64,000 nucleotides of DNA from an uncultured Rhodospirillales bacterium (lineage in GTDB: Bacteria > Pseudomonadota > Alphaproteobacteria > RF32 > CAG-239), in contig CACYYO010000002.1 in assembly GCA_902778645.1 (NCBI GenBank), positions 1,511 to 65,510 of the forward strand, read 5' to 3'. Each line of letters begins with the position of its first letter. Within the stretch, counting starts at the first letter, position 1. The notes below the pieces were generated by a model. It saw only the letters and a program-made list of their open reading frames with translations, made no database searches and had not been told where the DNA came from. Positions 13,652-59,716 of this stretch are shown here, in pieces. The position numbers and the translations under genes were made by a program.

Positions 13652-13735
13652 AAATTCTTTAACGCTAAATTAGTTTTTCAGCGCTTATATTAACATAGCA
13701 TACAGAAATTTCAAGTATAAGGGGGTAATAAACCA

Positions 13736-16174: not shown

Positions 16175-16439
16175 ACAGGGTGAATTTACCTGCCAAGAGG
16201 CTGTTCAAGATAAGACAAAGAGCGGACTGTCTATTGGGAACAGAGCAAAAAATGAGCTGACAAATACAAAAAACATAGGCATAGTAGGTGACTATAAAAT
16301 AGAAACGCCGTATATCAACCAATTTATGGCAGAACAGGCAGAAATGATAAGCAGAAAGTTCAATAATAGTGCTGTTGAGAAGAAAATTGATGCAGGGAAT
16401 TTAAGAATAAACCTTATTAAATAAGGTGAGGAAGACACG

Positions 16440-16850
16440 GTGGCAACCTTTTTTTGTTGCTGCCGTGCCTTCATTCATCGGTCACGCGGCACTTCTTTTT
16501 TATTATTGCCATCCCGACCCTACTTTTGTCACTCCGGTGCTTGACACCGGAAACGAAGTGAGCAAGCTGCTTTAGCTGTCGCGCTCCATCCACAGGAATA
16601 AAGCCATATCCCTATGGATACCCGAATCAAGTTCGGGTATGACAGAAAGAGGAGTTCCTTATTATCCCTCCCCTGCATGAGGGGAGGTTAGGAGGGGTAT
16701 TATCCTCCCGACCGAAGCGGAGGGATCTGCGCACGACCTCTCCCCCCAACCTTGTCTTTGTCACCACTCTCAGAACTCTCGACTGCGCTCGAGGTGACAC
16801 CCGTTCTCCCCAAAAAAGAATTGTAACAATTTTATGAATATTAACCAATA
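16440..16850. repeat. Cluster of short palindromic repeat elements. It holds family C (ccacag..aagccatatccctatggatacccgaatcaagttcgggtatgaca) and family A (cctcccctgcatgaggggaggttaggaggggt).
   Basis: Segment 16578-16645 is near-identical to 21001-21060. Segment 16665-16725 shares the CCTCCCCT-N-AGGGGAGG-ttRGgaggggt palindrome with 32351-32391 and 33642-33685. No ORF is supported in this region. Confidence 0.6.
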
Positions 16851-16940
16851 ATTATCGATTCCTGACTTAAGATATATTCACTTAAGTGGAAAAATATGCT
16901 ATACTGAGCAGAATGTTACGGTAGCAAACGAGACTAAAAA

Positions 16941-17588
16941 ATGTACATTTGGATGATATTAGCGACTTTTATGGTGATGCTGGCGGCATATAATTTATCG
17001 CCACGTGCAGATATTGCACATGTCCAAAATGCCCCTCAGGCGGAGGCAGCAATCACCAGGTTTTTGGCTTGGCACAAAGGAGCGGAAAAATACGCCATAG
17101 CTTATAAAGGTGCTTTATCAGAATCAGAATCACTAGGATGTGCTGTGCTCAATGATTACCTGCCGATGGGCTACATCTGTGTGGATAACGAATCTTCCTC
17201 AACAATCTATTACTTAAACCCGGCAACAGGAGAATCTCCTGAAGAAGGTGTTCTTGGTAAATACTTTGTTGTTTCATACCAGCATGTTCCTGACAAATGG
17301 TTGAATGTTGCGACCAATAAAATTTTAGGTGATTTTTACCATGCATTAGCCAGTCGTGTTCCGGCGGGGGTAACTTGCGGGATAATGGTTGCGGAAAATG
17401 AAGAGTTTTTATCCAATTGCGAAGAAACCCCAAAAAAAGACCGCGATAATAAACTATGTAGCAATTACGTTGTTGAGGGGGCGACGGCGCTGGATAAATC
17501 CATTCCACCGAAAGCTATTAGTGATTTGGAAGATGAATGCACTGATTCAGACAAAGCTCCATGTATTGTTTGTGTAAAAAAGATCTGA
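16941..17588 (+). CDS. Hypothetical membrane-anchored Cys-containing protein, co-oriented with the downstream prepilin-like giant gene
   Basis: 215 aa with an N-terminal hydrophobic helix MYIWMILATFMVMLAAYNL. Its stop lies 14 nt before the next gene's start. Confidence 0.5.
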   Translation: MYIWMILATFMVMLAAYNLSPRADIAHVQNAPQAEAAITRFLAWHKGAEKYAIAYKGALSESESLGCAVLNDYLPMGYICVDNESSSTIYYLNPATGESPEEGVLGKYFVVSYQHVPDKWLNVATNKILGDFYHALASRVPAGVTCGIMVAENEEFLSNCEETPKKDRDNKLCSNYVVEGATALDKSIPPKAISDLEDECTDSDKAPCIVCVKKI

Positions 17589-17602
17589 TAGGAGGACGAG
17601 CC

Positions 17603-20600
17603 ATGAGGAAAATAAACAGCAAATCCGAATTAGGTAGTATGATGATTGAGGCGATAGCCATGCTGGGCTTGATTGCCATGGTCACCCCTGTCCTCTACAA
17701 AAAATCAGCGGAGCGAACCTCAGAGTTGCAGGATATCAACACTGCCGGAGAAATTCGTTCGATTATCAAGGCGGTTGATGACTACGTTGGCGCCAATTAT
17801 AACAAAATTGTCGGAAAAGGAGATGGAAACGAAGATCGGACAGTCACAACCGGATGTACCGGAAAGACGGAAATTAACGGAAGTGATGTGGAACATAACG
17901 AGATAACATATGATATGGGTGATGGTGATTATAAAGAGATTCCTCTGGGACACCTTTGTCAGTTTCTCCCTTATGGTGTCTTGGATGGGGAAAACCACGT
18001 AAGAGCCTCAAAGTTATTCTCAAACTACAAAATTGTCTTAAAACAGAAAGGAGAAGTAACAGAGGACGATCCTAAAGCCCGACCGGTTATAACCTCTTTT
18101 GTGGTGACCGATCCGTACAATGAATTACCGATTCTCCGTGCTTCAAGCATATCTTCTATGATTGGTGGTAATGGTGGTTATGTTACAGAAAAACCGGATA
18201 AAAGCCTTGAAATAAGCGGTAATATGGGCATATGGGGCGTCGATAAACCTCAAGAGGAGCTTGGTGTCGAGGTTAAAAAGCATGCAATTGTTGCCGCCTC
18301 TATAGAGGGAATTTCTTCCCAAACCGCCACAGTCGAGGCTGGTGAGGATGACAGTGATAACTTCTTATATCGTACACCTCAAGAGGATAAAGAGTTAAAT
18401 ACGATGAGCACGACTCTTTTCATGGGGAGCACGGGTGAGGGTGGTGAGCTCCACGATATCGTCAATATCAAAGGTTTAGCTGTCGGGGCTGAGGACACGG
18501 GCAACCACGCGCTTTATATCGCCGGCGGGGACATCCAGATTGGTAACGATGCCGCCGTAAATATCAGTGATAGCGGTGATATCACGGTGACGGGCAACAT
18601 TAAGGCTGACGGAACTTTAGACATAGGTGGTACCGCAACTTTCGGCTCGAATGATGAAATTACATTAGCTGATGGCGACGGTACATTTACTGGTGCTTTA
18701 TCAGCGCTAACCGGTGATTTTGGCGGTGCTGTCACCATCAATGCAGGTGAAGGAGAAGTTAAAAAAACCACCATCAACCAACCGCTGGAGGTGGTGTTCG
18801 AAGATCAAAACGGAACAAAATGTATTTCTGTGGGCGATAACGACTGTGCTCTTAAGGTAACCGGTGGAGCCTCTATCAGCGGCAACCTGCATGTCGGACA
18901 TATTTTCAACGCTGAAGATTTACATGCACGGAATACATTAACTGTCGGTGGAAACGCTGCAAATAAGGGAAAATATTTGAGAGTTGCAGAAGGCGAATTT
19001 AAATTTGGTAATTTAGGAGAGAATGAAACCGGTACACCCACCATCTCAGCCACCAACACAACCTTTGATGTCACAGCCTCCGGTAATGATGGTCATGCGA
19101 CCCTCACACATGGCAATAACAGCCTCAATGTCAACGCTTCCGGTGTCACCATGACCGGTGGTTCTGGGAGTGGCAGCGATGCAGTAAGCGCCACTATCAC
19201 TGCCAGTGCTGCAGGAAATGTCAGTATAAACTCTGACGCTGGCAAAACCATTAAAATGAACACCGATGACTTCGTCGTAACAAATACCACCGATGGTGGC
19301 ACGATTACATCTGACGTAAACAGTTTCAAAGTCCGCCCGACGAACACAACTGGCACGAGTACCAATGGTTATTTTGAAATCAAACATAATGGCACAGCGG
19401 ATGGTAATTATAATGAGCATATGGTTGTTGATAAAATGGACACTTATTTTACAGGAACAAATGCAGCTAAATCTAATGTCTACCTCCGCGATTCGGTCTT
19501 CAAACTGCAAAATAGCGACAACAATGACGTCGTTCGTATTGGGCAAACAGCAGATTCTAATGCGCAAATCGACATCTCCGGTGAAGGCGTAACTATGGCT
19601 GATGCCCCGAATGGCAATAAAGTCTTACGTGTTAATTTGTCTTCTTCTCTGGCTGCACATGATACTAGCTATCCCATCTATATCCGCAAAGGTGCCATTG
19701 AGATGACAGCAGGTGAAAATGAGCCGAGACCCTACATCCAAACTGAAAAACTTATTTCTACCAAAACGGTTCCTGATTTGCTGGATGATAATGGAGGGCA
19801 TTCTGGTGCGGGAATTCACTACGCTGTCGACCCGGCATATACATCCATCATGCATGATATCAAACTCACCACGCGTGGCGGTGCTCGCCTGAGCGATATT
19901 TTGCCTGATTTTATCAACAAAGGTATCTATGTCGTCGACAACACCGCCCCAGCCTTAGGAGTAGATTGCTCAATAGATGGGGAGACATCACACGGGAGAT
20001 GGCTCGACAACAAGAGCGATAGCAATCCAGGATATTTTAACATGTCTGTAGCAGATAAACTTGCCGTAATTCCTTGCGTAGCGGCGGATAAAAAAGTGAG
20101 CCCATGGGCGGGGTATGTTCCGATTCCAACGTGTCCGCACGGATATTCGGCGGTTATAACGGTCGGTTTAGCCAATGCCGCTATGGCACAGGGCGGTCAT
20201 CTAGCTCCAAAGACTAAGTGGGGAGGGAGTGGAAACACTCTTGAGGATTTAAAAGAAGCACCGGATAGTAACAGTGGCGCTTATAGCGGGTCAACCACAA
20301 GCCCCGAAGATATTGCTCCGGGGAATCCAGGGGCTCCGTACGCCCTGTATAATCAAAAGAATACATGGCTGAAATCAAGTATTCACTTATACCCGACAGC
20401 AGCAGAACCTCAGGGTTGGGATGTCTTGCTGGGATTTGTCTACCCATATGAATGGTATAAAAGCTTTATACCCCAAGCAGGAAGGAATCTTGATTATTTT
20501 GATTACCAAGGAGAAGATGACGTCTCTATCGGTTCAGAAACAGGATTTAATGATCAACTGATTTGGAATATGTTCCCGGTCTATACCAAAACCATTGAGA

Positions 20601-20848
20601 GTTACGCAACCGTTTATTGCTACTTTAACCGTAATGGTAGTCCGTGTAACTCATGGGATAAAGATGGCAATTGCACAGGGTATGATACGGGTCATCCTTA
20701 TTTCAATAGCTCTCTCGTTGATAAATACTATAACCAGCTGAAAAACTTCAGAGAGCGTCACTCAAAGACCGGCGGTGCGAACGATGGAGACAATCCGTAC
20801 ACAGGCCGTCTGAATAACGATGATGCTGATTTCAAAGGATACTGGTAA
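17603..20848 (+). CDS. Giant protein of about 1080 aa with a type IV prepilin-like (class III) signal, and large G/T/N/D-rich beta-repeat and Cys/aromatic C-terminal domains. Putative pilin-like adhesin.
   Basis: Strong SD (aggagg) and ATG at 17603. N-terminus MRKINSKSELG|SMMIEAIAMLGLIAMVTPVLY has a basic leader ending in Gly, Glu at +5 and a hydrophobic helix of about 20 aa. The ORF track start at 17561 is probably too far upstream. Confidence 0.6.
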   Translation: MRKINSKSELGSMMIEAIAMLGLIAMVTPVLYKKSAERTSELQDINTAGEIRSIIKAVDDYVGANYNKIVGKGDGNEDRTVTTGCTGKTEINGSDVEHNEITYDMGDGDYKEIPLGHLCQFLPYGVLDGENHVRASKLFSNYKIVLKQKGEVTEDDPKARPVITSFVVTDPYNELPILRASSISSMIGGNGGYVTEKPDKSLEISGNMGIWGVDKPQEELGVEVKKHAIVAASIEGISSQTATVEAGEDDSDNFLYRTPQEDKELNTMSTTLFMGSTGEGGELHDIVNIKGLAVGAEDTGNHALYIAGGDIQIGNDAAVNISDSGDITVTGNIKADGTLDIGGTATFGSNDEITLADGDGTFTGALSALTGDFGGAVTINAGEGEVKKTTINQPLEVVFEDQNGTKCISVGDNDCALKVTGGASISGNLHVGHIFNAEDLHARNTLTVGGNAANKGKYLRVAEGEFKFGNLGENETGTPTISATNTTFDVTASGNDGHATLTHGNNSLNVNASGVTMTGGSGSGSDAVSATITASAAGNVSINSDAGKTIKMNTDDFVVTNTTDGGTITSDVNSFKVRPTNTTGTSTNGYFEIKHNGTADGNYNEHMVVDKMDTYFTGTNAAKSNVYLRDSVFKLQNSDNNDVVRIGQTADSNAQIDISGEGVTMADAPNGNKVLRVNLSSSLAAHDTSYPIYIRKGAIEMTAGENEPRPYIQTEKLISTKTVPDLLDDNGGHSGAGIHYAVDPAYTSIMHDIKLTTRGGARLSDILPDFINKGIYVVDNTAPALGVDCSIDGETSHGRWLDNKSDSNPGYFNMSVADKLAVIPCVAADKKVSPWAGYVPIPTCPHGYSAVITVGLANAAMAQGGHLAPKTKWGGSGNTLEDLKEAPDSNSGAYSGSTTSPEDIAPGNPGAPYALYNQKNTWLKSSIHLYPTAAEPQGWDVLLGFVYPYEWYKSFIPQAGRNLDYFDYQGEDDVSIGSETGFNDQLIWNMFPVYTKTIESYATVYCYFNRNGSPCNSWDKDGNCTGYDTGHPYFNSSLVDKYYNQLKNFRERHSKTGGANDGDNPYTGRLNNDDADFKGYW

Positions 20849-24688: not shown

Positions 24689-24744
24689 CACGATTTTTTC
24701 CTTGCAAAAACGCAGAGATAAAGGTATAAAAAAGCAAGTTTATC

Positions 24745-24838
24745 ATGGAGAACGGCGGGTTAAGAATTCGCCAATCCGGTCAGGTTCGGAAGGAAGCAGC
24801 CGTAACGAATGACCTTAAGGTCGCTTGTTCTCCGCCTT
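24745..24838 (+). ncRNA. ffs: Signal recognition particle RNA (small bacterial SRP / 4.5S RNA)
   Basis: ccggtcaggttcggaaggaagcagccgtaacgaatgac matches the conserved SRP domain IV (GGUCAGGUCCGGAAGGAAGCAGCC). Terminal helix ggagaac (24747-53) pairs with gttctcc (24827-33). It lies immediately upstream of dnaX, a very common location. Confidence 0.7.
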
Positions 24839-24852
24839 AGTTTTGAAGAGAA

Positions 24853-28976: not shown

Positions 28977-31900
28977 TTATTTCTTGCCTTCTTCCGTCTT
29001 TTTGGTATCAGTACATTTGCCTGAAATCTCATCAAATACGCCGCCCTGAGCAGCACACGCCTGTTGAGCAGCGGCACTTATCTGGTTTCTCTTGTTTTCA
29101 TTACTCTGGAAATCAAAATTGCCGGATGATTGTTGATACCTTGCTTCATCATACCCTTCGGTTACGCCAGTTAAAACTCCAAACAGAGTCCCCATGGCCT
29201 GTGCGCCATCACCCAATCCGAGCATACCACCCAAGCCTTCTCCTTCATTACGACCGGCCTCTGCCATAGCAGCGGTATTGCTGGCACCTGCAGCAGCCTC
29301 TGCTACCTTTTCCATACCGGTCAAAATCGTAGAACCGCCGCCTTTTCCGTCATTGTTCATCCAGTTATTAAAACCTGTTTGCTCGCTTTTAACCTGCTGC
29401 TCCAAATTTGCCAAAGCATTCTTTTCATTCTCGCTGCAAACCGAGGTCGAACATTTTTTCAGCAATTCTTCATATGTCTGGTTCAATACGCCGCGATATG
29501 CTTCTTGAGCCCTTGATGACCCCATATCTTGTACATTATTAGAAATTGCGCTGCCTGCTCCGGCCAAAATATTAGCCTCTACAGCCGTATTCCCGACCAT
29601 TGTTGCAAGAGCAGTTGTTGCATCTGTGACGTTAGAGAAGAAGTCACTGGCGCCGTCTTTTGCCGCCTTATAATTTGCTTCCGCCTGATCAACAACGGCT
29701 TGAGCGCTTTCCTCTCCGGATCTTGCATACGCCAAGTCACGCTCAGCCTGAGCAACCAGATTATCCCCTTCTCTTGTCGCCTGATCCAAAGCATACTGTG
29801 CTTGGTTTACCAGATTATCCCCTTCTCTTGTTGCCCGATCCAAAGCATATTGTGCTTGTGTGACTGCATTATTGGCATTATTATAATCAGCTTTTGCCGT
29901 ATTAAGTGCCTGATTGGCCTGAGATAAAAGATATTCGTCATCAGTAATATCTTTGCGCAGGTTTTCCATATCAGCACGAATCTCTTCTTCGGTTTTGTTG
30001 CCGTACTTGTTTGTGAGGTCCTGATATTCCTGACGATATTGTTTGGCATCCGCTTCTGCTTGCGCCATTTGCTCTTTAAGCTTGGCAATTTGCGCCGCCT
30101 CTGCCGGACGATTAGGGTCTAACTGATTAATTTGCTCTTGTAATCTGGCAACTTCATCATCTTTGGCTTTAGCTGCATCTAATAAATCATCTTTTTTGAG
30201 ATATTTATTCATATCTTCCAATTCTTTGGCGTGTTGAGCGCGTTGCGCTTGCAAGTTGTCAATATTTTCTTGGGCCTGATTAACAGCAGCCAATTTTTCT
30301 TCAGCCTCTTTCTTTGCAGCATCTAATTTATCTTGCTGTTCTTTGACAAGAGCATCTCTTTGTTTCTTCGCTTCATCAACACCTTTTTGTGCCTCATCAA
30401 TAAGATTATCTCTCTCTCTCTGTGCTGCGTCTAAAGCTGCCTGTTTTTCAGCAACATTGGCTTGCGCCTGATTCAAAATCTCGTTAGCTGTATTCAAATC
30501 CTGCTGTGCGGCACGGACGTAATCATTTGTGCCATTCCAAGCATCGCTAAATGCTTTCGCGGCGTCAATAGTGCCTTCCACGTAGTCTTTTACTGATTGA
30601 ACGCCCACAGCAGTATTACGAATAATGTTAAGACCATTCTTTATTGCATCAACGCCATCCATGAAGCTCCACCCTTTACCATCTGCCGCCGCTTTTAAGT
30701 CTGCCATATTAACATCCGGACATAAATTAGGGTTATTGCTGCATTCTTGAATCATTTGTTCCAATTCTTGCGGAGACATTGATGAGTAGGACGACGATCC
30801 GCCTGATCCGCTTGTAAAGTACTGCGCATGGTTACCATTAGGCAAGAAGTCTCCATATTGCAATGTAGACCCGTCATTATAAACGATTTCCTCAATCAAA
30901 GCGGTTGTCATAGAGAGAATAAATAGACCGATACCGATATTGGCCAACTGCTTAAAATTAATTTTACCGATAATTGCGCTATAAGCAAAGGCAATCATTC
31001 CGAAACCGGCTAAAATATAGACAATAGAACGTAAATCAGCGACAATAAGTGTAATTCGGCAAGCAAGGTATTGAAAGATACCAAACCCGCCACTTTGGGA
31101 CATATTGTCTTTAGCCTCTTTACACGTCGGCTTTGCCAGTGCGGCATTTACCTGTTTTTGAATATCAGTACTAGTTCCTGCTTTATCTCCATCTCCGATT
31201 CCTCCAGTAGAATCTGTATTTAAACCGTAGCCACAAGTTCCTTCTTCAATACAAGAATATTCACCGGAACGATTTAGAGCTTCTTGATAAGCTTTTGCTT
31301 CTGCCTGACATTCAGCAGACCCTTTTTCAAATTGACAATCATCATAAGCTTTTTTAGCCTGATCAAGTTTCTGCTGAGCTTGTCGTGCTTCTGCTGCTTT
31401 TGCCGCTGCCACACGATCTTCTCGAGCCTTTATAATACATTCTGAGATTGGTCCACCACATTTTTCAAAAGCAGCATGCTCTTCAGCTGTCGCATCAACA
31501 GAAAAAGTACAAGCTCTAAGAGTGGTACTATAAACCATTCCACCGGAACAAGAATTTTGGTTAACTTGTAAAGCCGTAGAATCAGCATTATTTTGCGCAG
31601 TTGCATTTTTATTATTAGCTTCAGTAGCCGCCTTTGCTTTTTTTCCGGCTTTTTTTGCTGCGTTTTGATAAGCATTATAAAGGTCCTTCAATCGAGAACA
31701 AACAGCATCATTCGGATTTTGTTTACAAGTTGCAATGGCGGCATCATATGCGGCCTCAGCTTCTTGTGCTGCTTTCTGTGCTGCCTCATTTTCTGCATTT
31801 GCTTTATCCGCTTTTTCTTGAGCGCTGTTAGCTTTTTTACTGGCTTTATCAGCATTACTATTGTCTTTTTTACATTGCGAAAGAGCAGATTTTGCATTAC

Positions 31901-32273
31901 GGAGCTGCGTTGCCATGCCTTCTTGACATTGCTTTAAAGCTGTTTGAGCGTTTGTTAAAGCGATACTCACATGCTTTGAAGCATCCATGCCACCGGAAGT
32001 ACATTTTTTATACTCCGCTTTAATGGTGTTATATACATCACAAACAGAATCCAACTTATCTTGAGCCGAAGTAACAGCTGCCTGTTGCGTTTGACAATTA
32101 CCATAAGCATTATAAGCAGAGACAGCACTCTGCGCATTTGCACAATTACCATAAGCCTCATCCCTGGTAATATCTTCAATATCAGTTTTCGCATTAGCTT
32201 CATTAACAGACAACAAAAATCCTAAGCACAGTAGGAATGAAACACCTCTCATCGCTTTATTAATCATTTTCAT
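28977..32273 (-). CDS. Giant secreted coiled-coil protein with an embedded VirB2/TrbC-like (T4SS pilin) double-TM hairpin
   Basis: Signal peptide MKMINKAMRGVSFLLCLGFLLSVNEANA. Cys-rich N-terminal domain and A/Q/K-rich coiled coils. The core LRSIVYILAGFGMIAFAYSAIIGKINFKQLANIGIGLFILSMTTALIEEIV aligns with the two small paralogs downstream. Internal duplicate NQAQYALD(R/Q)ATREGDNLV. Confidence 0.6.
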   Translation of the reverse strand: MKMINKAMRGVSFLLCLGFLLSVNEANAKTDIEDITRDEAYGNCANAQSAVSAYNAYGNCQTQQAAVTSAQDKLDSVCDVYNTIKAEYKKCTSGGMDASKHVSIALTNAQTALKQCQEGMATQLRNAKSALSQCKKDNSNADKASKKANSAQEKADKANAENEAAQKAAQEAEAAYDAAIATCKQNPNDAVCSRLKDLYNAYQNAAKKAGKKAKAATEANNKNATAQNNADSTALQVNQNSCSGGMVYSTTLRACTFSVDATAEEHAAFEKCGGPISECIIKAREDRVAAAKAAEARQAQQKLDQAKKAYDDCQFEKGSAECQAEAKAYQEALNRSGEYSCIEEGTCGYGLNTDSTGGIGDGDKAGTSTDIQKQVNAALAKPTCKEAKDNMSQSGGFGIFQYLACRITLIVADLRSIVYILAGFGMIAFAYSAIIGKINFKQLANIGIGLFILSMTTALIEEIVYNDGSTLQYGDFLPNGNHAQYFTSGSGGSSSYSSMSPQELEQMIQECSNNPNLCPDVNMADLKAAADGKGWSFMDGVDAIKNGLNIIRNTAVGVQSVKDYVEGTIDAAKAFSDAWNGTNDYVRAAQQDLNTANEILNQAQANVAEKQAALDAAQRERDNLIDEAQKGVDEAKKQRDALVKEQQDKLDAAKKEAEEKLAAVNQAQENIDNLQAQRAQHAKELEDMNKYLKKDDLLDAAKAKDDEVARLQEQINQLDPNRPAEAAQIAKLKEQMAQAEADAKQYRQEYQDLTNKYGNKTEEEIRADMENLRKDITDDEYLLSQANQALNTAKADYNNANNAVTQAQYALDRATREGDNLVNQAQYALDQATREGDNLVAQAERDLAYARSGEESAQAVVDQAEANYKAAKDGASDFFSNVTDATTALATMVGNTAVEANILAGAGSAISNNVQDMGSSRAQEAYRGVLNQTYEELLKKCSTSVCSENEKNALANLEQQVKSEQTGFNNWMNNDGKGGGSTILTGMEKVAEAAAGASNTAAMAEAGRNEGEGLGGMLGLGDGAQAMGTLFGVLTGVTEGYDEARYQQSSGNFDFQSNENKRNQISAAAQQACAAQGGVFDEISGKCTDTKKTEEGKK

Positions 32274-32350
32274 GGCACATCCTCCTAATAGTCCTTAGAA
32301 TTTTATATTAATAATTTCCCGTCTTTGTTCTTTTTTTTGCCCCTTTATAA

Positions 32351-32391
32351 TTCCTCCCCTTTTCAATAGGAGAGGGTCAGGAGGGGGTCTG
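32351..32391. promoter_or_regulatory. Family A palindromic element (ttcctccccttttcaataggagagggtcaggagggggt) in the promoter region of the giant VirB2-like gene
   Basis: Shares the CCTCCCCT-N-AGGGGAGG-N-GGAGGGG architecture with 16665-16706 and 33642-33685. Confidence 0.45.
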
Positions 32392-32403
32392 ATAACACCT
32401 TGT

Positions 32404-32925
32404 TTATCCGCCTGTCTTCAAGCTGTCGGTTATCATATCTGTCGTAATAACGGTATCCTCAACCATGTAGTTAATAATCGCCGCTGTTGCCGCAATTACA
32501 AACAACCCGATCAGAATAGCCGTCAACCATTTATAATTAATGTTTCCGAAAATGGAGCCGATAACCACCGCAATAATCCCAAAACCGGAAACCGCATAAA
32601 TAATCTCTCGCAAGCCGGTAAAGATTTTGCCGCCATGCGCCGCCAAATCACCAAATAAGGGACCCGAACTCCCACTCCCATGACCAAAATGAATAACGTT
32701 GGACATTCCTGAAGCAGCTGTTCCTACCACTTTTTTCGCTGCCTCCACAGCTTCAGGACTAGGATCTTCCGCCCACGAGTTCGTTGCAAATAAAATTGAA
32801 GAACACACAAACACCGCCAAGCTGGCAACAACCAATTTCTTAAAATTTATGTGCAACATTCTAAATATTTCCCTAAAAGAAACAAAAGGAAGGCGTTGTG
32901 AGCAATTTGTAAATAAATTTTTCAT
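32404..32925 (-). CDS. VirB2/TrbC-like T4SS pilin family protein (paralog 2, 173 aa)
   Basis: Signal peptide (LAVFVCSSILFATNSWA), then LREIIYAVSGFGIIAVVIGSIFGNINYKWLTAILIGLFVIAATAAIINYMV, two hydrophobic helices separated by a K/W loop. Confidence 0.6.
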   Translation of the reverse strand: MKNLFTNCSQRLPFVSFREIFRMLHINFKKLVVASLAVFVCSSILFATNSWAEDPSPEAVEAAKKVVGTAASGMSNVIHFGHGSGSSGPLFGDLAAHGGKIFTGLREIIYAVSGFGIIAVVIGSIFGNINYKWLTAILIGLFVIAATAAIINYMVEDTVITTDMITDSLKTGG

Positions 32926-32964
32926 AACAAACCTTCCTTTCTTTTTCAGTTAAATTAACATATA

Positions 32965-33327
32965 CTATTTTGTTGTACTGCTCTGGAAGGTATCACCCAT
33001 TGTACCTTCACCAGTACCGGCATAACCACTGGCACCTGTTGCGTATTCAACGATAGCACCGGCTGCCGCCAACAGGGCTAAACCGACTGCCAAGCCGGCA
33101 AACCATCCCCATTTAACCTTACCGATAATCGCTTGGTAAGCAATACCAACCAAACCGAAACCACCGATAACGAAGGTAATGGTTTTGACATGTTGGAACA
33201 CATTCATTGCTTTTCTCTCTGCAACCGTCATTAACGGTGAAGCTTGCGCAAAAGCATCAAGTGATACCAATGTCAAAACAAATGCCCAAGAGCAAATTGT
33301 CCAAATATTTTTTTTCAAGAAACGCAT
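32965..33327 (-). CDS. VirB2/TrbC-like T4SS pilin family protein (paralog 1, 120 aa)
   Basis: Signal peptide ending AFAQA, then ITFVIGGFGLVGIAYQAIIGKVKWGWFAGLAVGLALLAAAGAIVEYATG. Same architecture as Agrobacterium VirB2 (a GxFG helix, a K/W loop, a G-rich helix). Confidence 0.65.
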   Translation of the reverse strand: MRFLKKNIWTICSWAFVLTLVSLDAFAQASPLMTVAERKAMNVFQHVKTITFVIGGFGLVGIAYQAIIGKVKWGWFAGLAVGLALLAAAGAIVEYATGASGYAGTGEGTMGDTFQSSTTK

Positions 33328-33772: not shown

Positions 33773-34897
33773 ATGCAAAAAAAGTTTTTATTCTATATTC
33801 TGGCAAGCACAGTCTTAACACTCCACCCGTCTCTGGCACAAGAAACGAAGCTTTCTGCCGCCGCAGCGTGGGATTCCTTTTATGGCTATACTTTTTTTGA
33901 TAAAGACTACAAACACAAAGACCATCGCCAGCATTTTACCAATCTCTTTGAGGTTAATCTGGGCGCAGAAAAAGAATTTGACAATGGCTGGTCACTGGCT
34001 CTTTACGCTGATTTATATGCCGGCATCAACAAAAGACAACGCAATTACAGCAACGGCCTGTGGGGGCATGAAATTTATGCGATTATAGATAATCCCTACG
34101 GGCGGGCAATGATTGGGGAGACACAAAACGTTGCGGCGCAGTTTCATATCAACGCCCCGAAGGCAGGAAAGTTCGGTATTAATGACAGTGAAGTCACCAA
34201 TTTTATAGCAAACCCCAACTGGCTCAAAGACAAGCATCACACTGCTTTTCGTACCCTTAATTCAACCGCGATTAACACAGATGGAACCGTTGCCAAACTG
34301 AGTTACATTTCCCCTGAGATTCATAATATAACCTTAGGTATCAGCTATATTCCCGACACTTACAGCCGCACCGGTCTTGTTAATAGAGACGCTCGCTATG
34401 CTGAAGATGACGGTTATGTCGGTGCGGCATATTATACGGCAGACCTTGGCTTTGCGGAATTGGAAAGTTCTCTCGGATACGCGGTCTTTAATAAAGATGA
34501 CCGAGACTTAAGCCTCGGTGCAAGCTTATATCGTCTGGGCTGGACAATCGGCGGCAGCTGGCGCAAAACAGATGTTGAGGGGAAAGACTATCCGATAACT
34601 CATATCAGCAATACCCCTAAATTACCGGATTTATTCGATAATTACCGCGAAGGGCAGGCTTGGGATATAGGTATCGGCTATCAGTTCGGTCCTCTCAAAA
34701 CCGCGCTGTCGTATTTTGAGAGCAAGGCCAAAAACACCTCTAATAAAGATAAAATATGGCTCTTGTCGAATGAGTTTCGCTATGATAAGCATCTGGCATT
34801 GTACTTAGCAGCAGCCAAAACGGACTTTGAGGGTGCATCAAACGCAGAAAGTAATCGCGGTTGGGCGTTGATGAGCGGCTTTAGTGTAGGATTCTAA
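33773..34897 (+). CDS. Outer-membrane beta-barrel porin-like protein
   Basis: Signal peptide MQKKFLFYILASTVLTLHPSLAQE. Alternating beta-strand pattern. C-terminal aromatic terminus ...GFSVGF. Confidence 0.7.
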   Translation: MQKKFLFYILASTVLTLHPSLAQETKLSAAAAWDSFYGYTFFDKDYKHKDHRQHFTNLFEVNLGAEKEFDNGWSLALYADLYAGINKRQRNYSNGLWGHEIYAIIDNPYGRAMIGETQNVAAQFHINAPKAGKFGINDSEVTNFIANPNWLKDKHHTAFRTLNSTAINTDGTVAKLSYISPEIHNITLGISYIPDTYSRTGLVNRDARYAEDDGYVGAAYYTADLGFAELESSLGYAVFNKDDRDLSLGASLYRLGWTIGGSWRKTDVEGKDYPITHISNTPKLPDLFDNYREGQAWDIGIGYQFGPLKTALSYFESKAKNTSNKDKIWLLSNEFRYDKHLALYLAAAKTDFEGASNAESNRGWALMSGFSVGF

Positions 34898-34899
34898 TA

Positions 34900-35526
34900 A
34901 TGCCTAATATACTTTTTTTATCGGATAACCCTCTTTTGCAAGCGGACTTGACCAACCAAATAGAGACGGTTTTGCCGGAATATAAAGTAACCACAACAGA
35001 TGACAACGAAACTGTTTTGGATATTGCCCTGTTGGATGGTAAAAAGTTTTTGGAACAATTCCGGCAAAAACACGCCAAAGTACCGGCGCTGATTTTTGAT
35101 TCTTCAGAGAACAGCGAATATACAGAGAATAACCTTAATACAATTGTCTATAAACCGATTGTTTTGGCAACCTTGCTTAATCAGATTAAATCAAGCATAA
35201 ATGTTTTTGCCAATTCTACCGAGGGTGTTTTACATTTTGGTTCGTACGAGTTGCACCCGGAAGACAAAACCCTTGTTAATCTGCAGAACAAGCAAATCAT
35301 CAAACTGACGGAAAGAGAAATCAGCATTATCAGATACTTATATAAATCTGCAAATAAACTTGTCAGTAAAGAAGAATTGCTTGAGAATGTTTGGGAATAC
35401 AGTGCAGAGACGACCACCCATACGATAGAGACGCATATTTACCGCCTGCGTAAAAAGCTGGAGCAAGAAAACACCGCCGCCCCGCTGATTGTAGCGGAAG
35501 ACGGCGGCTATCGGTTAGAGAGATAA
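34900..35526 (+). CDS. OmpR/PhoB-type winged-helix transcriptional regulator with a degenerate receiver-like N-terminus
   Basis: C-terminal trans_reg_C domain (LTEREISIIRYLYKSANKLVSKEELLENVWEYSAETTTHTIETHIYRLRKKL). The N-terminal domain lacks the usual acidic pocket (no DD pair; IALLDGKKF). The start lies 2 nt after the porin stop. Confidence 0.7.
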   Translation: MPNILFLSDNPLLQADLTNQIETVLPEYKVTTTDDNETVLDIALLDGKKFLEQFRQKHAKVPALIFDSSENSEYTENNLNTIVYKPIVLATLLNQIKSSINVFANSTEGVLHFGSYELHPEDKTLVNLQNKQIIKLTEREISIIRYLYKSANKLVSKEELLENVWEYSAETTTHTIETHIYRLRKKLEQENTAAPLIVAEDGGYRLER

Positions 35527-35539
35527 ATTATCTTATCTG

Positions 35540-38500
35540 CTATTGTATCTCTTTTACTTTCGTAAAGCGTTGATCTTGTGCCGCATTGCGCTTTGCAATA
35601 CCTCTTCTCTTTTCTGCCGCTTTTGTGGGCTCAAAGTTATAGTGTTCGGTGTCGTTTTGTAGTTCTTGAGCCGTCGGAAGTTTTTTCTTACCGCCGACAA
35701 AATCATTCATGTCGACGACAGCTTCCCGTTCGGCACTGTTCTTCTGTTCACGATTTGGCTGAGTAGCCTTAAACGTGCCATCGCTTACTAAACAGTGTTC
35801 TGCAAAGTTTGCAAAGTCTTCCGGCAATATGGTTTGCAAGAGGTTATGGCGAGAAATATTACTGCTCCATAATCCCTGACGAGCACTGGTGACAACATCA
35901 GATAATCCGCGAACATGCGCTTCCTGTGCAGATTCGTAATCGGCATCGAGCTTTAACTTTCCTTGTTTTCCACCTGATGTAAACGGAATCTTATCACTAT
36001 GCCCGGCAACGGCTTGGTCTATCATTTCTAACTGCCCTTTTAAATAATCCAACTTGGGCATATCCGGTGATGTAGACAGACGTCTTTCATCTAAGCGATT
36101 GCAGAAATGATTAAACAGTTTTTCTTTATTTTCATTTTCCGGTCCATAGATACAGACGAACAATTCCTTGCTGATAGTCATTTCTTCAGGTTCATTAAGA
36201 TTTTCTAAGGCTAAAGCCGGCTTCTTTTCCGGGAGAGTAATTTTATCCTTACCTGTAAGTTCATCAACTGCTTGATGAAATACGGAAGAATAATCAGGCT
36301 TGTTGACTGTTGTATTTGGTGTTTGGTACTCTTTTTTCTTCTTAAGCCTTTTCATAATCTCTTTAGCTTCTTCCGGAGTTGGTAAATATCCGGCAATCGG
36401 CTCTAAATTTTCGAGCTGCTTCGGCTCTTTCTGCTTAACCGGCTGTTTTGGCTTAGCTTCTTCGGCTTCTTGTTGTCTCCTCTTGGCCAATACTTCTTCT
36501 GTTTCCAAGAGCGCAACCGGCTGTTCTGGCTCTTTCGGCTTAACCGGCTGTTTTGGCTCTTTCGGCTTAACAGGCTGCGTCTGATCTACCGGCGTTTTAT
36601 CCACCGGTGTCTTGTCCACCGGTGTCTGATCTTCTTTTTCATTCTTCTTGGCATTCGCTCCAACACGTTCTGCCAAAGCACGATTTTCTCTCTGATTATC
36701 ATGAACCATGGTGAAAGGCAGAATATCTACACCCTCTTCGGTATGCTGGGTTATCCGCTGATACAGTTCTTCTTGCCCCGGATGATCGTGCGGTTCATAA
36801 CCGACATCAGCATCTTTATTATAAGAATCAGGATTCTTTCCATCACCCAAGCTGTCAAAATCCTTAATTTTACCCATATCATTAACGTCGCCCTCATGCT
36901 GTCCACCAACATGATTCTCGACAATTTGCAGAACTTGAGCATCTGCTTCAGTCAGGGGTTCTCCGCTAAGAAGTTTATGGTATGTATCTTGATAAGTTGT
37001 TGTATGACCGTTTTCGTCCGTATAGCTCAAGACTTCCCCAATCGGCTGACCGTTATCGGCAAGAGCATCAGCATTTGGTGCTAAAATATTTGCCTGGTAA
37101 AGTTTGTAAAGAAGCATGTCGCTGTTAGAAACAAACGCACCATTGACATAGCTGTTCATTTCATGGTGTGTTTCAGCCAACTTATCTAAAGAAGCAACAG
37201 CATCATTATATGCCGAGGTATTCTCATTATAAGATTTATCCGTCCAGTCATGACCTAAATACTCACTGTAGCGTGTTCCGCCGGTATGAGGATCATTGGG
37301 GTCTAATACTTGCTCCATACGATGCTTGGCAAAATCAAGTTCTTCAGCGGTATAATCACGCGTTGTAAACCCGTCTTTACCTTCTTGAACAAGAAAAGCA
37401 CCTTCATCAGTTTTATCACAATATTCTAAGGTATAACCCTGTTTTGTCAGTTCTTCTTCGGGCAAAGCTCGCAAGTTATCAAATTCACTTCTGTCTGTAA
37501 CAACACTGTCATGAGATGTTGTCCCCAACCCTGTGGCTTGCATACCAAGCCCGAGAGCATAACTGGTTCCCAGAGCTGTTCCGGTTGATAATGTAGCAGA
37601 AAAAGCAGCTACAGAAGCTGATTTCCACCAGCTTTCGCCTTTTTCTCTTTGACGGCGGAAGGTTTTAACAATGTTCGTCAGATTACCGACAGCCATTGCA
37701 CCAAATCCCAAACCTTTCGCTGCATCTTTGGCCGCAGCACCACCCAGCAGAGCGGCACCAGTTGCTAGTGCAGAAGTGGCAATTTCACCAACATGGTCTT
37801 TTAAGAATCCTTTTAAAGTAAGTTTACGATTATTTTTCTTCGCTTCTTCTTTGAGGCGCTTATACTTTGTTGATAAACGGAAAATTGCCTGCCCGCCGAC
37901 ATAAGCACCATAAGCAATATTACCAAAGGGAATAAGGCTTGATCCGTAACGGACAAGTTGGTTCAGCGCTTGTCTGCCCATATTATGCTTCATAGCTTTT
38001 ATTTGTGTTTTAGCAATCGTATAATAAGGATCAAAACGTTTAATGGCGGTATTATCAAAGCCTCTAATGCTTTCTGCCATATTCCCGACTGCATTTGTCT
38101 TCTTACCGATTTTCGTTCCCAAACGATTCAAATAGCCGAATGCATCATTCGTATAGCGAGCAAAGTTTGCAACTTGTACCTTATTATCTACCTTATAGTT
38201 TCCACCGGTACCATTAATAACGGCATCATAAGCGGCTTGCCCGGCAGCTTTAGCCTGTTGCTCACTCATCGGTTGCGGAATATAAGAAGGATTAGCCTGC
38301 CTTTTTTGTTCTTCCTGAGCCAAATGTTTAGCAGCCTCGTTAGCTGTCAACATTGCTGTTAATTCAGCGGCATAAGCTATATTAATCTCTTCTTGAATGG
38401 CGGCATCTAATTCTTCACCCTTTTTGCCCTTGTTTTTAACAGCCGCATTCATCGTTGCTTTTTTGATAACAGCCTCATTAAAGGAGTTGATGAAGTTGTC

Positions 38501-39463
38501 ACGTTGCGTATTATCTACAAATTCAATATTATCCCAAACCTGAGCCAAATCTTCCGGCGGATTTTTGATTTTTCTTTCAGCCTCATTTTCTTTAGCGAGT
38601 TCTTCGTTGACTCGTTTTTGAGCTCTCAAATACGTTTCGTTAATTTCATAGGCATCATCATGTGTTAAGCCCGTAAAACCATTAGCGTCATCATAAATAT
38701 TGATTTCTATTTCAAGTTTTTCACGACAGATTTCGATATTTTGCTTCAAGGCGTCATCATCAGGATTCTTTTCCTCAACATAATCATACATTAACCTTGC
38801 GCCGTCATAAACATCGGCAATATTTGTCTGGTCAACAGTGGTTTCACTATTGGCATATTTGTTTACCTTAGAAACCATGACCTCCATTAATGCCGCCCTT
38901 GAAGCCTGCATTTCTGCTTTGATGGCATCAGTGCTGGCATGATTTTCAGCTTCCTCCAACCATCGAGAGGTATCAACCAAACGTCTCGGCGGATAATATT
39001 CAAGAATCTCCTGTTTCAGGGCTTTATCTCTTTGGTTGAAATCATTTCGCTCATCTGCATTTAAGTTGGCTTTTGCCAAATTAATGGCATCTTGTTGAGC
39101 ATCATGATCTAAAGAAGCAAAATTTTCCGGCAGTTTATTCATTTGCGCTAAAATAGCACGGTCAATACCTACACGAATTGGAGCCCCGGAATTTAAGAAA
39201 TCAGTATTCTCGCCGCTGATAAGCTGCTGCCATTCATCAGAAGTAAAGTTAGTTTCAATGCGCTGAGAGTCATTTTGGTTTTGATTCTCGTTTTCACGCT
39301 CCCTTTTGGCGCGTTCTTCGGCAATCATTTGTGCCCTGAATTCATTTTTATTTTGTGCTGCTTCATAGGCGGCGCTATCTTCTCTTGAGGCAGTATTACC
39401 TGTATATTTTTCATTAAACCATGCTTCTAATGCATCATTAGTTATATCAGCCATTGCCGTCAC
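35540..39463 (-). CDS. Giant hypothetical protein of 1307 aa, effector-like: acidic coiled-coil N-terminus, central hydrophobic segments, tandem PVDKT / PVKPKEP repeats and a basic C-terminus
   Basis: No signal peptide (MTAMADITNDALEAWF...). Repeats QTPVDKTPVDKTPVDQTQPVKPKEPKQPVKPKEPEQPV. C-terminal tail KAAEKRRGIAKRNAAQDQRFTKVKEIQ. Confidence 0.6.
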   Translation of the reverse strand: MTAMADITNDALEAWFNEKYTGNTASREDSAAYEAAQNKNEFRAQMIAEERAKRERENENQNQNDSQRIETNFTSDEWQQLISGENTDFLNSGAPIRVGIDRAILAQMNKLPENFASLDHDAQQDAINLAKANLNADERNDFNQRDKALKQEILEYYPPRRLVDTSRWLEEAENHASTDAIKAEMQASRAALMEVMVSKVNKYANSETTVDQTNIADVYDGARLMYDYVEEKNPDDDALKQNIEICREKLEIEINIYDDANGFTGLTHDDAYEINETYLRAQKRVNEELAKENEAERKIKNPPEDLAQVWDNIEFVDNTQRDNFINSFNEAVIKKATMNAAVKNKGKKGEELDAAIQEEINIAYAAELTAMLTANEAAKHLAQEEQKRQANPSYIPQPMSEQQAKAAGQAAYDAVINGTGGNYKVDNKVQVANFARYTNDAFGYLNRLGTKIGKKTNAVGNMAESIRGFDNTAIKRFDPYYTIAKTQIKAMKHNMGRQALNQLVRYGSSLIPFGNIAYGAYVGGQAIFRLSTKYKRLKEEAKKNNRKLTLKGFLKDHVGEIATSALATGAALLGGAAAKDAAKGLGFGAMAVGNLTNIVKTFRRQREKGESWWKSASVAAFSATLSTGTALGTSYALGLGMQATGLGTTSHDSVVTDRSEFDNLRALPEEELTKQGYTLEYCDKTDEGAFLVQEGKDGFTTRDYTAEELDFAKHRMEQVLDPNDPHTGGTRYSEYLGHDWTDKSYNENTSAYNDAVASLDKLAETHHEMNSYVNGAFVSNSDMLLYKLYQANILAPNADALADNGQPIGEVLSYTDENGHTTTYQDTYHKLLSGEPLTEADAQVLQIVENHVGGQHEGDVNDMGKIKDFDSLGDGKNPDSYNKDADVGYEPHDHPGQEELYQRITQHTEEGVDILPFTMVHDNQRENRALAERVGANAKKNEKEDQTPVDKTPVDKTPVDQTQPVKPKEPKQPVKPKEPEQPVALLETEEVLAKRRQQEAEEAKPKQPVKQKEPKQLENLEPIAGYLPTPEEAKEIMKRLKKKKEYQTPNTTVNKPDYSSVFHQAVDELTGKDKITLPEKKPALALENLNEPEEMTISKELFVCIYGPENENKEKLFNHFCNRLDERRLSTSPDMPKLDYLKGQLEMIDQAVAGHSDKIPFTSGGKQGKLKLDADYESAQEAHVRGLSDVVTSARQGLWSSNISRHNLLQTILPEDFANFAEHCLVSDGTFKATQPNREQKNSAEREAVVDMNDFVGGKKKLPTAQELQNDTEHYNFEPTKAAEKRRGIAKRNAAQDQRFTKVKEIQ

Positions 39464-39650
39464 TCCTCAAAAGTTTTTCTTTGATTATATCAAAGACTTG
39501 CCGTCTTGTCAATATTTTGTCTAAAACAATAATGATTGAAGAGAGGCAAGTATTTTGTATAAACAAAATCATGAAATCACTTGCTTTCTGATAATAAACA
39601 CCTTAAATAAAGAATAAGTTAACAAAAATAAGATTTTAGCAGAACAAGAA

Positions 39651-43306: not shown

Positions 43307-43385
43307 TTGGCGTCAGCGGCGGGACTCGAACCCACTACCCACAGTTTAGGAAACTGTTGCTCTATCCTGATGAGCTACGCCGACG
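43307..43385 (-). tRNA. tRNA-Arg (anticodon CCT)
   Basis: The reverse complement GCGTCGGCGTAGCTCATCAGGATAGAGCAACAGTTTCCTAAACTGTGGGTAGTGGGTTCGAGTCCCGCCGCTGACGC folds as a cloverleaf. Anticodon loop tt-CCT-aa, T arm GGGTTCGAGTCCC, acceptor GCGTCGG/CTGACGC. Confidence 0.85.
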
Positions 43386-59077: not shown

Positions 59078-59716
59078 TTGAATGATGTTAAAACAGTCGA
59101 TGTTCCATCAGCTGATACACCAAACCCGTATTTGCAACCGCAAAATACTGTTTTCGGTCAACCAACGCAATTTGCACAGAATAATATGCAAGCGAATGAT
59201 ATGTATAATGATTATCCAAATTTAAGAGATGATAAAAGGGATTTTTTCAAATCTGCAGTTGAAAGCGTCGTAAAAGCGATCCCTTCGTCTTTTGAACGCA
59301 ATAATCCTTTAACGCAATCATTAGGGGCGGCAAGAGACTTGGGTGAAAACTATATAAATATGGTCAATGCCAATCTTAAAAGTTCTAAGGATATGTCTAC
59401 CCAAGGAACAACCTCGGATAATTATTACCATTGCTTAGGTAATTATAATGCAGCTAGTCGGGGAGATTATGGAGCTAAAACAGCGGAAATTATTGGTAAT
59501 ACACGAGAAATAGCTGATTGGGGAATAAATTGGCTTTTTAAGGATAAACCAATTTCACAAGCAAATGCTGATTTCAAAAATGATAGAGCCGTTAACTTAG
59601 ATGGTCGGAATATGGCTCAAAGCGGGCAATATAACTCAGCATGGGATGCTTGTGAAAAATATCGCCCTAAACAATACGATCCTAACGAGCGCTTGTATTA
59701 TTACCATAAATATTAA
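59078..59716 (+). CDS. Serum amyloid A (SAA)-like domain protein
   Basis: NYYHCLGNYNAASRGDYGAKTAEIIGNTREIADW parallels the vertebrate SAA core [33 protein letters not shown]. The tail ...YRPKQYDPNERLYYYHKY parallels SAA ...HFRPAGLPEKY. Confidence 0.55.
   Translation: MNDVKTVDVPSADTPNPYLQPQNTVFGQPTQFAQNNMQANDMYNDYPNLRDDKRDFFKSAVESVVKAIPSSFERNNPLTQSLGAARDLGENYINMVNANLKSSKDMSTQGTTSDNYYHCLGNYNAASRGDYGAKTAEIIGNTREIADWGINWLFKDKPISQANADFKNDRAVNLDGRNMAQSGQYNSAWDACEKYRPKQYDPNERLYYYHKY

Follow-up and report, generated by a model that had tools for sequence, protein, structure and literature searches.

A large modular protein of an undescribed family in uncultured gut Alphaproteobacteria, possibly an exported transmembrane effector

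Transmembrane effectors of type IV secretion systems (T4SSs) are moderately hydrophobic, have short trans loops and mostly keep both ends in cis (PMC12981334, a 2026 review). The type IVA signal is a positively charged C-terminus read by VirD4, and transmembrane segments are expected to score below 1.5 kcal/mol in the full ΔG predictor (PMC12981334). Here we describe a large gene on the reverse strand of a 64-kb stretch of DNA from an uncultured Rhodospirillales bacterium (contig CACYYO010000002.1, positions 1,511 to 65,510; hereafter the window). Its product resembles the T4SS transmembrane effectors of Brucella and Rickettsia (VirB/D4) and of Legionella and Coxiella (Dot/Icm) (PMC12981334) in having no Sec signal, internal helical hairpins that are moderately hydrophobic in the family, very short predicted trans-side turns, both ends predicted in cis and a positive C-terminus. 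It differs from them in that it has no sequence or fold relation to those described, is far larger than most, carries two hairpins plus a glycine-zipper helix and has no eukaryote-like domain. It is also conserved across a wide clade, single-copy in 12 loci and fixed in place, with no machinery seen.

Chlamydial Inc proteins, which are mostly small and fast-evolving type III substrates of Chlamydiae, carry a 'bilobed' hydrophobic hairpin. The likeness to the present protein is in the short hairpin turn and the flanking domains on the same membrane side, but there is no homology and no type III secretion system was seen here. TonB and TolA share with it a Pro/Lys/Glu-rich repeat spacer between modules. 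Unlike them, it has no N-terminal anchor, no TonB_C or TolA domain and no ExbBD/TolQR context, and its spacer is dispensable in close strains. About 10 distant members of the family end in ...FFxxLFxxxGK, like the amphipathic targeting helices of MinD and FtsA (MinD ends in ...GFLKRLFGG). The tail of the window protein, KRRGIAKRNAAQDQRFTKVKEIQ, is basic but has no paired aromatics, and the remaining protein is unrelated to those ATPases. The T4SS toxins of Xanthomonas carry a C-terminal VirD4-binding domain, XVIPCD. The present protein likewise has a folded C-terminal domain, of roughly 120-220 residues, which could act as a recognition module. It differs from XVIPCD in occurring on one family only, with no neighbouring immunity gene and no sequence similarity.

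The gene encodes a real protein of a family without known relatives in uncultured gut Alphaproteobacteria. It is secure that the protein is modular and strongly expressed, that its family is new and that its central part is made for a place in or on a membrane, both large domains lying on one side. The whole protein has no match in Pfam, NCBIfam, PHROGs or PADLOC. Four separate pieces gave only noise in Pfam at E <= 10 (VMAP-M8, 0.029; HNH_4, 0.13; ETRAMP, 0.16), and neither the single protein nor the family profile matched a PDB sequence. No fold match was found for the AlphaFold model of the core (best E = 0.43 against PDB, 0.02 against BFVD) or, in PDB, for that of the C-terminal domain (best E = 2).

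A word-indexed search returned 23 clusters, all unnamed, and an exhaustive profile search of 1.84 billion representatives returned 123 proteins at E <= 0.001, 38 of them below 1e-30 and nearly all 1,000-2,100 residues long. The few relatives that bear a name are all 'hypothetical protein' of Alphaproteobacteria or Rickettsiales metagenome-assembled genomes (MAGs). Members come solely from uncultured gut Alphaproteobacteria, some labelled Rickettsiales. The family is previously undescribed; it comprises at least 123 clusters, counted at 50% identity, and is absent from database descriptions. A genome scan gave one locus, in a roe-deer rumen MAG that is the nearest GTDB genome, and a scan of JGI metagenomes gave one 3-kb locus. 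No relative was found among the 2.9 million viral contigs of IMG/VR. The other large orphans of the window (1098 and 1095 residues) are unrelated to the family, and no paralogue was found in the window.

The gene had been singled out in a sequence-only reading of this DNA, which gave it 1307 residues (35540-39463) and proposed its product as a T4SS effector candidate. The large frame is real; as listed it opens with a GTG, but its start is more likely an ATG. The GTG overlaps the Shine-Dalgarno sequence, and an identical product in public assemblies (P0027) has 1304 residues and starts MADITND. Therefore, the real coding sequence most likely begins at the ATG three codons into the listed frame (Table 1). 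A TTGACA-type -35 is found at the same place in six of seven homologues compared (L006 has TTGCCA), and the TTTAGACAAAA motif directly precedes the -35 in all seven. The two upstream copies of this motif may represent a regulator site or an UP-like element. The motif is not enriched across the window (5 matches against 4.6 expected). Co-regulation with the nearby pilin cluster was considered and rejected, as the motif was not found upstream of the VirB2 genes.

The anatomy of the protein (146 kDa, pI 5.2, net charge about -50, five cysteines) was drawn from three alignments (A1, A3 and A9) and two AlphaFold models, one of the core and one of the C-terminal domain. The N-terminus, MADITNDALEAWFNEKYTGN, reads as acidic and without a hydrophobic core. 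This agrees with the earlier statement that a signal peptide is lacking; there is neither a Sec nor a Tat signal. The acidic N-terminal third reported there was also recovered, every 50-residue block of residues 1-400 having a net charge of -1 to -6, and AlphaFold models this part as helical bundles. Some 20 N-terminal residues are kept even by distant members, with the family consensus MA-x-[FIY]-..-L-E-x-[WI]-F-x-E-x-[YF]. The N domain that follows contains the invariant motifs TSDEWQQL, YPPxRLV, VDQ[ST]NIADVYDG, YDxxNGF, GYLNRLGTKIGKK and FDxTxIKRFxP. Distant relatives have profile positions ~170-725 in common. At the end of the α/β domain, the invariant R-x-G-x-N of ERVGANAK forms the border to the variable C-terminal part. 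A Walker A motif was considered at GTKIGKKT, which does not fit GxxxxGK[ST].

Table 1. Position and anatomy of the gene and its product in the window (pLDDT, predicted local distance difference test; pTM, predicted template modelling score; nt, nucleotides)
Feature	Position	Strand	Remarks
Coding sequence, 1304 residues (most likely start)	35540..39454	-	ATG 39454-39452, stop codon 35540-35542; P0027 identical
Shine-Dalgarno GAGGAG, 8 nt before ATG	39463..39468	-	
Sigma-70 promoter TTGACA, 17 nt, TATAAT, extended -10 TG	39484..39512	-	12/12 consensus positions
Two upstream motif copies: TTTAGACAAAA (39525-39515), TTTATACAAAA (39563-39553)	39515..39563	-	Just upstream of -35
Conserved N-terminal peptide (MADITNDALEAWFNEKY...)	39386..39454	-	Alignment A1; N-termini of 119 family members
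Variable low-complexity N-terminal linker, residues 27-70	39254..39385	-	
All-helical N domain, residues 71-505	37949..39253	-	Conserved; block-mean pLDDT mostly 65-93
Gly/Ala/Ser/Thr-rich helical hairpin module, residues 506-648	37520..37948	-	Strongly basic loops flank hairpins
Conserved α/β domain, residues 649-940	36644..37519	-	Block-mean pLDDT mostly 72-91
Variable Pro/Lys/Glu-rich spacer, residues 941-1092	36188..36643	-	
Helical C-terminal domain, residues 1093-1307	35543..36187	-	AlphaFold pLDDT 77, pTM 0.78
Basic C-terminal tail PTKAAEKRRGIAKRNAAQDQRFTKVKEIQ	35543..35629	-	Predicted final long helix; aligns with KMRxI..[KR]NPKN
Strain-variable segment	35531..36628	.	1098 bp in window vs 144 bp in L008

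The membrane character of the centre is visible in the family more than in the window protein itself. Hydrophobicity was scored as a simple 19-residue Hessa sum, a simplified measure that differs from the full ΔG predictor. By this measure the hydrophobic segments of the window protein score +5.3 to +5.7 kcal/mol, against -3 to +3 kcal/mol for bona fide membrane helices in the same window (pilins, an ATP-binding cassette permease and others). The central Gly/Ala-rich stretches pointed out in the sequence-only reading are thus real, yet marginally hydrophobic and not transmembrane-grade. They are homologous to membrane-grade hairpins in distant relatives, whose segments score as low as -1.1 kcal/mol and in 26 of 129 members below 2. 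The alignment shows two hairpins (A-B and C-D) and after them a fifth helix of the glycine-zipper type. No other helix is less hydrophobic than this last one; helix E of distant members scores about +4.5 to +5.8 kcal/mol. In the window's clade helix A has been lost around a P-G-G-N turn, and the degenerate first hairpin of the window protein has a PFGN turn. The second hairpin turn of the window protein has 9 residues and its glycine-zipper helix 34.

Charge is distributed around the module in a regular way. Across 111 members, the 30 residues before the module have a mean net charge of +4.5 (positive in 99%) and the inter-hairpin loop one of +5.1 (positive in 100%). The C-D turn is about neutral, with a median of 7 residues, and the loop after the second hairpin has net +1.5. 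Beyond the last helix, the next 50 residues are acidic in 87% of members (mean net -5.5). Because the flanks are basic and the turn is short and neutral, both protein ends are placed on the same membrane side. This is the signature expected of hairpins that would enter the membrane from the side of the protein bulk, both ends staying there. We infer that the hairpins lie in a membrane in the window's clade. The biophysical profile of T4SS transmembrane effectors is seen in the family, the window's own segments standing at +5.3 on the simplified Hessa sum.

The second family-wide feature is the C-terminus. The C-terminal domain of the window protein is a divergent version of the family's (~22-25% identity, 21 invariant columns). 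Across the family three C-terminal states were seen, mostly one conserved domain. A hidden Markov model (HMM) of the domain matched this family only and no other protein of the loci. A large-database search with the C-terminal alignment returned a single fragment; it missed known positives and is therefore uninformative.

The last 30 residues of the window protein have net charge +5, in keeping with the positively charged tail of the sequence-only reading. Whole proteins of the family average net -44, yet 90% of 119 members carry a net positive charge on their last 30 residues. We compared 109 non-redundant members with 123 background open reading frames (ORFs) from the same loci. Over the last 30 residues the net charge averages +3.6 in the family and -0.26 in the background (Mann-Whitney p = 4e-18), lysine or arginine occurs within the last three residues in 86% versus 48%, and arginine in 53% versus 17% (Fisher p = 7e-9); since members are related, these p-values overstate independence. 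A basic, K/R-ended C-terminus persists across tails that do not align, and the close family conserves the motif KMRxI..[KR]NPKN. Family-wide selection for a basic C-terminus is secure and not a quirk of the window sequence. The positively charged C-terminal signal of type IVA substrates is thus present, a feature that is necessary but far from specific.

The linkers of the protein vary between strains and relatives. The repeat string QTPVDKTPVDKTPVDQTQPVKPKEPKQPVKPKEPEQPV occupies residues 946-983. Tandem Repeats Finder detected a 27-nt unit in 2.3 copies (36515-36577, 94% matches, score 112), read as QPVKPKEPK twice, and a 15-nt unit in 3.7 copies (36577-36631), read as TPVDK three times. A third, diverged copy lies at 36415-36453 (90%). 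This establishes the proline-rich tandem array of the sequence-only reading and the direct nucleotide repeat behind it. Its comparison with eukaryote-like linkers did not survive, as the repeats are a variable spacer. Copy-number variation between strains, which that reading had suggested looking for, was found: the number differs in the related locus L001, and the repeats are absent in L008.

L008 has ~93% DNA identity to the window over the region, and the strain-variable segment (Table 1) is there replaced, with the breakpoint at the first TPVDK repeat. Its product has 992 residues and lacks the repeats, the C-terminal domain and the tail. This form occurs on six contigs from several sources, and the strains without these three elements are 95% identical. 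In L001, the N-terminal linker is replaced by a ~400-residue module with ~24 tandem PQPG repeats (L001 8789-9990). This module also holds two ~100-residue internal repeats; the window protein has neither these nor PQPG units. The core of L001 (residues 66 to ~940) is 92.7% identical in DNA to the window and 96.5% to L008 (L001 10009-12729, window 36522-39260, L008 3998-6614). The flanking genes of L001 are only 66-81% identical to those of the window (dnaJ 79%, porin and regulator 70%). High identity begins exactly after the PQPG repeats and stops in the Pro-rich spacer. An assembly chimera is unlikely, because there is no shared sequence at the 5' junction. This pattern indicates that the core was probably exchanged between diverged species, with junctions in repeat linkers. 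The ratio of non-synonymous to synonymous substitution rates (dN/dS) is 0.12-0.16 for the core, versus 0.01-0.07 for dnaJ, recR, dnaX, the porin and the regulator. Orphan neighbours have values as high or higher (o371, 0.16; VirB2, 0.20). Such mosaic evolution, in which modules are shed, suggests that selection acts from outside the cell.

Our tentative reading is that the protein is an exported transmembrane effector of the type IVA style, which we hold to be possible rather than probable. A slight edge over its rivals comes from the match of its features to the profile in PMC12981334, from the anchor's loss of the hydrophobicity that would be needed in a resident protein and from the mosaic, module-shedding evolution. 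The protein would be made in the cytoplasm without a Sec signal. Its hairpin helices, rich in small residues, would be too weakly hydrophobic for the signal recognition particle (SRP) to capture them, and the protein would stay soluble. The K/R-ended positive C-terminus, usually on a helical C-terminal domain, would serve as the recognition element for the export machine; the only hint of a candidate is to a T4SS of the VirB/D4 type. Once the protein is delivered, its double hairpin would insert into the membrane of the target cell. The large domains and basic loops would stay on the delivery side, and only the turns of 7-9 residues would reach the far side. The repeat linkers would act as extended spacers of adjustable length between modules. 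The tail as secretion signal, a T4SS as exporter and the existence of a target cell are each putative.

A broader version of this proposal is doubtful. In it the family would form a novel class of 'core' transmembrane effectors, conserved proteins of 1,000-2,000 residues that are recognised by an Arg/Lys-ended C-terminus and present throughout a radiation of uncultured gut Alphaproteobacteria. The double glycine-zipper hairpin would sit in a partner cell's membrane, the partner being a protist or a bacterium, the two large domains of novel fold would act there, and modules would be swapped between species at repeat linkers.

Several observations weigh against export. The score of +5.3 is probably above the 1.5 kcal/mol cut-off of the review, which refers to the full ΔG predictor, from which the simplified score differs. 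The C-terminal domain is restricted to this family and is therefore not a shared delivery module. The tail of the nearest strain variant has a net charge of only +1, and the FFxxLFxxxGK tails of distant members, MinD-like amphipathic motifs, would bind the bacterium's own membrane equally well. Pfam and PHROGs searches of 35 distant relatives revealed no domain, eukaryote-like or enzymatic. A family HMM found one member per locus in 12 of 12 loci tested, the five-module architecture is kept over deep divergence, and the place beside dnaJ/dnaK is fixed down to relatives at E = 9e-88. Single copy, stable architecture and fixed place would be less typical of an effector than of a core component of the cell.

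A TrbC/VirB2 pilin of 120 residues (32965-33327, reverse strand; Pfam E = 2.5e-9), a porin (33773-34897) and an OmpR-type winged-helix regulator (34900-35526, forward strand) do lie beside the gene, as the sequence-only reading had it. Its use of this cluster as contextual support does not stand: only the window, L007 and L008, which form the closest clade, have it next to the gene, and the conserved neighbour in the closer clade is dnaJ. In L001 the porin and regulator are kept, the VirB2 gene not. In the window, L001-L008 and L010 the gene and dnaJ point away from each other, despite differing outer genes, and in L006 and L010 it is antisense between dnaK and dnaJ. More distant members are located elsewhere. 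As to a complete T4SS, the window contains three VirB2-like pilin paralogues and no machinery gene: VirB4, VirB6, VirB8-11 and VirD4 were not found in its 64 kb, and no T4SS machinery gene was found within 10 kb in 13 related loci examined. Because three pilin paralogues lie next door, some T4SS-type apparatus is probably present in the organism.

A reading nearly as good as export and, as we judge it, rather unlikely in turn is that the protein is resident, with a structural or scaffolding role at the cell's own inner membrane, on its cytoplasmic face. The double hairpin, or in this clade its weakly hydrophobic remnant plus the basic loops, would hold the protein at the membrane and leave both large domains in the cytoplasm, the C-terminus would make a second contact with the membrane or a partner, the N-terminal peptide would recruit a partner and the linkers would set distances. 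There is precedent in kind: Alphaproteobacteria have giant polar or cytoskeletal proteins that are lineage-specific, among them PodJ and the growth-pole-ring protein GPR of Agrobacterium. A positive-inside pattern kept in 99-100% of members argues for such a protein, as do the transmembrane-grade hairpins of distant members, which SRP would normally send to the inner membrane, and the MinD-type amphipathic tails of ~10 members. So do the full sigma-70 promoter, with a TTGACA-type -35 in six of seven homologues and the upstream motif in all, and the one copy in each of 12 loci, under purifying selection and at a fixed dnaJ/dnaK position through several flanking rearrangements. No secretion machinery has to be assumed. 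The difficulty is that the window's clade has no segment hydrophobic enough to anchor the protein (+5.3 kcal/mol, helix A lost). The positive-inside rule also leaves unexplained why non-homologous tails, ~650 residues from the hairpins, should keep a K/R end. It would also be unusual for an internal scaffold to have its core exchanged between species, to lose its C-terminal module and to vary in its repeats.

An envelope spanner of the TonB/TolA kind is improbable. Here the last hydrophobic helix would cross the inner membrane, with the α/β domain, spacer and C-terminal domain in the periplasm, where the proline-rich spacer would form a bridge to either the outer membrane or the peptidoglycan. 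KP/EP-type repeats do resemble the TonB spacer, the 50 residues after the last helix are acidic (87% of members, mean -5.5), and a porin gene is nearby in this clade. However, the acidic N-terminus offers no anchor, and the weakest helix (the window's segments score +5.3 to +5.7) would have to drive the export of ~650 charged residues. The entire proposed periplasmic bridge is missing in 95%-identical strains, and several relatives end in cytoplasm-type amphipathic tails. The sequence-only reading had named homology to TolA or TonB as the finding that would speak against its proposal. Pfam searches of the separate domains at E <= 10 found no TonB_C or TolA domain, and neither exbBD nor tolQR was found in the window or related loci.

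Still less credible is a remnant of a phage or mobile element (a tape-measure, internal virion or ejection protein) or a polymorphic toxin with a swappable C-terminal toxin domain. The protein is long and helical with central Gly/Ala-rich segments, and its fold matches in BFVD are mostly tail and tape-measure proteins, but none is significant (best E = 0.02). PHROGs has no match to the protein or to 35 relatives, IMG/VR holds no relative, and the gene is chromosomal, beside dnaJ in a window with dnaA. One distant homologue, in L013, stands beside T7-like capsid and tube genes, but on the opposite strand. The variable part after the invariant ERxGANxK boundary would suit a toxin, whereas only three C-terminal states occur, mostly one conserved domain, and no small immunity-type gene is conserved next to it. 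The L013 locus (13663-19779) belongs to a termite-type 'Rickettsiales bacterium' MAG; its homologue, P0105, abuts T7-like capsid, scaffold, tail-tube and cell-wall hydrolase genes. No sequence link was found between the family and phage proteins.

The surroundings of the gene have features of their own. The pilin-like paralogues stand in a row (28977-33327, reverse strand): the 120-residue VirB2 protein, a 173-residue ORF (32404-32925) and a 1098-residue ORF (28977-32273), the latter two carrying a VirB2-like helix pair. In the 1098-residue protein the helix pair is embedded between other features: it has a signal peptide, a Cys-rich N-terminal part and a long coiled coil, for which weak matches of the SMC/JetC type were found. 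The cluster is kept in L008 and is diverging fast, with 76% protein identity for VirB2 versus 95-99% for neighbours. The match of the OmpR-type regulator covers its C-terminal winged helix only (residues 134-206), and its N-terminal 120 residues fit no receiver-domain model; it may be an atypical or orphan response regulator. In the window dnaJ is apart from dnaK. The dnaJ side of the intergenic region (39464-39650 in the window; L001-L008) has a conserved CTTGCC-N16-CCTTAAAT, which we take to resemble an alphaproteobacterial sigma-32 promoter.

Further away, the forward strand carries a 1095-residue orphan (16941-20848) with a prepilin-like start, G|SMMIEAIAMLGLIAMV, and Glu at +5, preceded by a 215-residue orphan. 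Neither has a Pfam or NCBIfam match; the larger is possibly a giant protein of the Tad type or one resembling type IV pilins. A 212-residue protein (59078-59716, forward strand) matches Pfam serum amyloid A (SAA; E = 9.7e-14), a domain best known from vertebrates. The window also holds dnaA (1226-2671, reverse strand), a small SRP RNA (24744-24839, forward strand) and one tRNA (43311-43384, reverse strand), and the presence of dnaA puts it near the replication origin. Its other genes are ordinary housekeeping genes, and an Opp-type transporter is also encoded. The transporter speaks against one candidate order for the window, Rs-D84 (Enterousia), which has been described as reduced, partner-dependent and without an Opp-type transporter (PMC12306168).

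The exchange of modules between species at repeat junctions makes this family a useful case of low-complexity linkers serving as recombination joints. If the protein is a resident scaffold, it would be a lineage-defining structural protein of these bacteria. If it is instead exported, it would be an effector that is large, conserved and highly expressed, with an unusual anchor of two hairpins and two domains whose fold is unknown, and would offer a way into the interactions of uncultured gut Alphaproteobacteria with other cells. Should the wider proposal of a 'core' effector hold, the family would be a central host-interaction factor of poorly known, partner-dependent gut bacteria.

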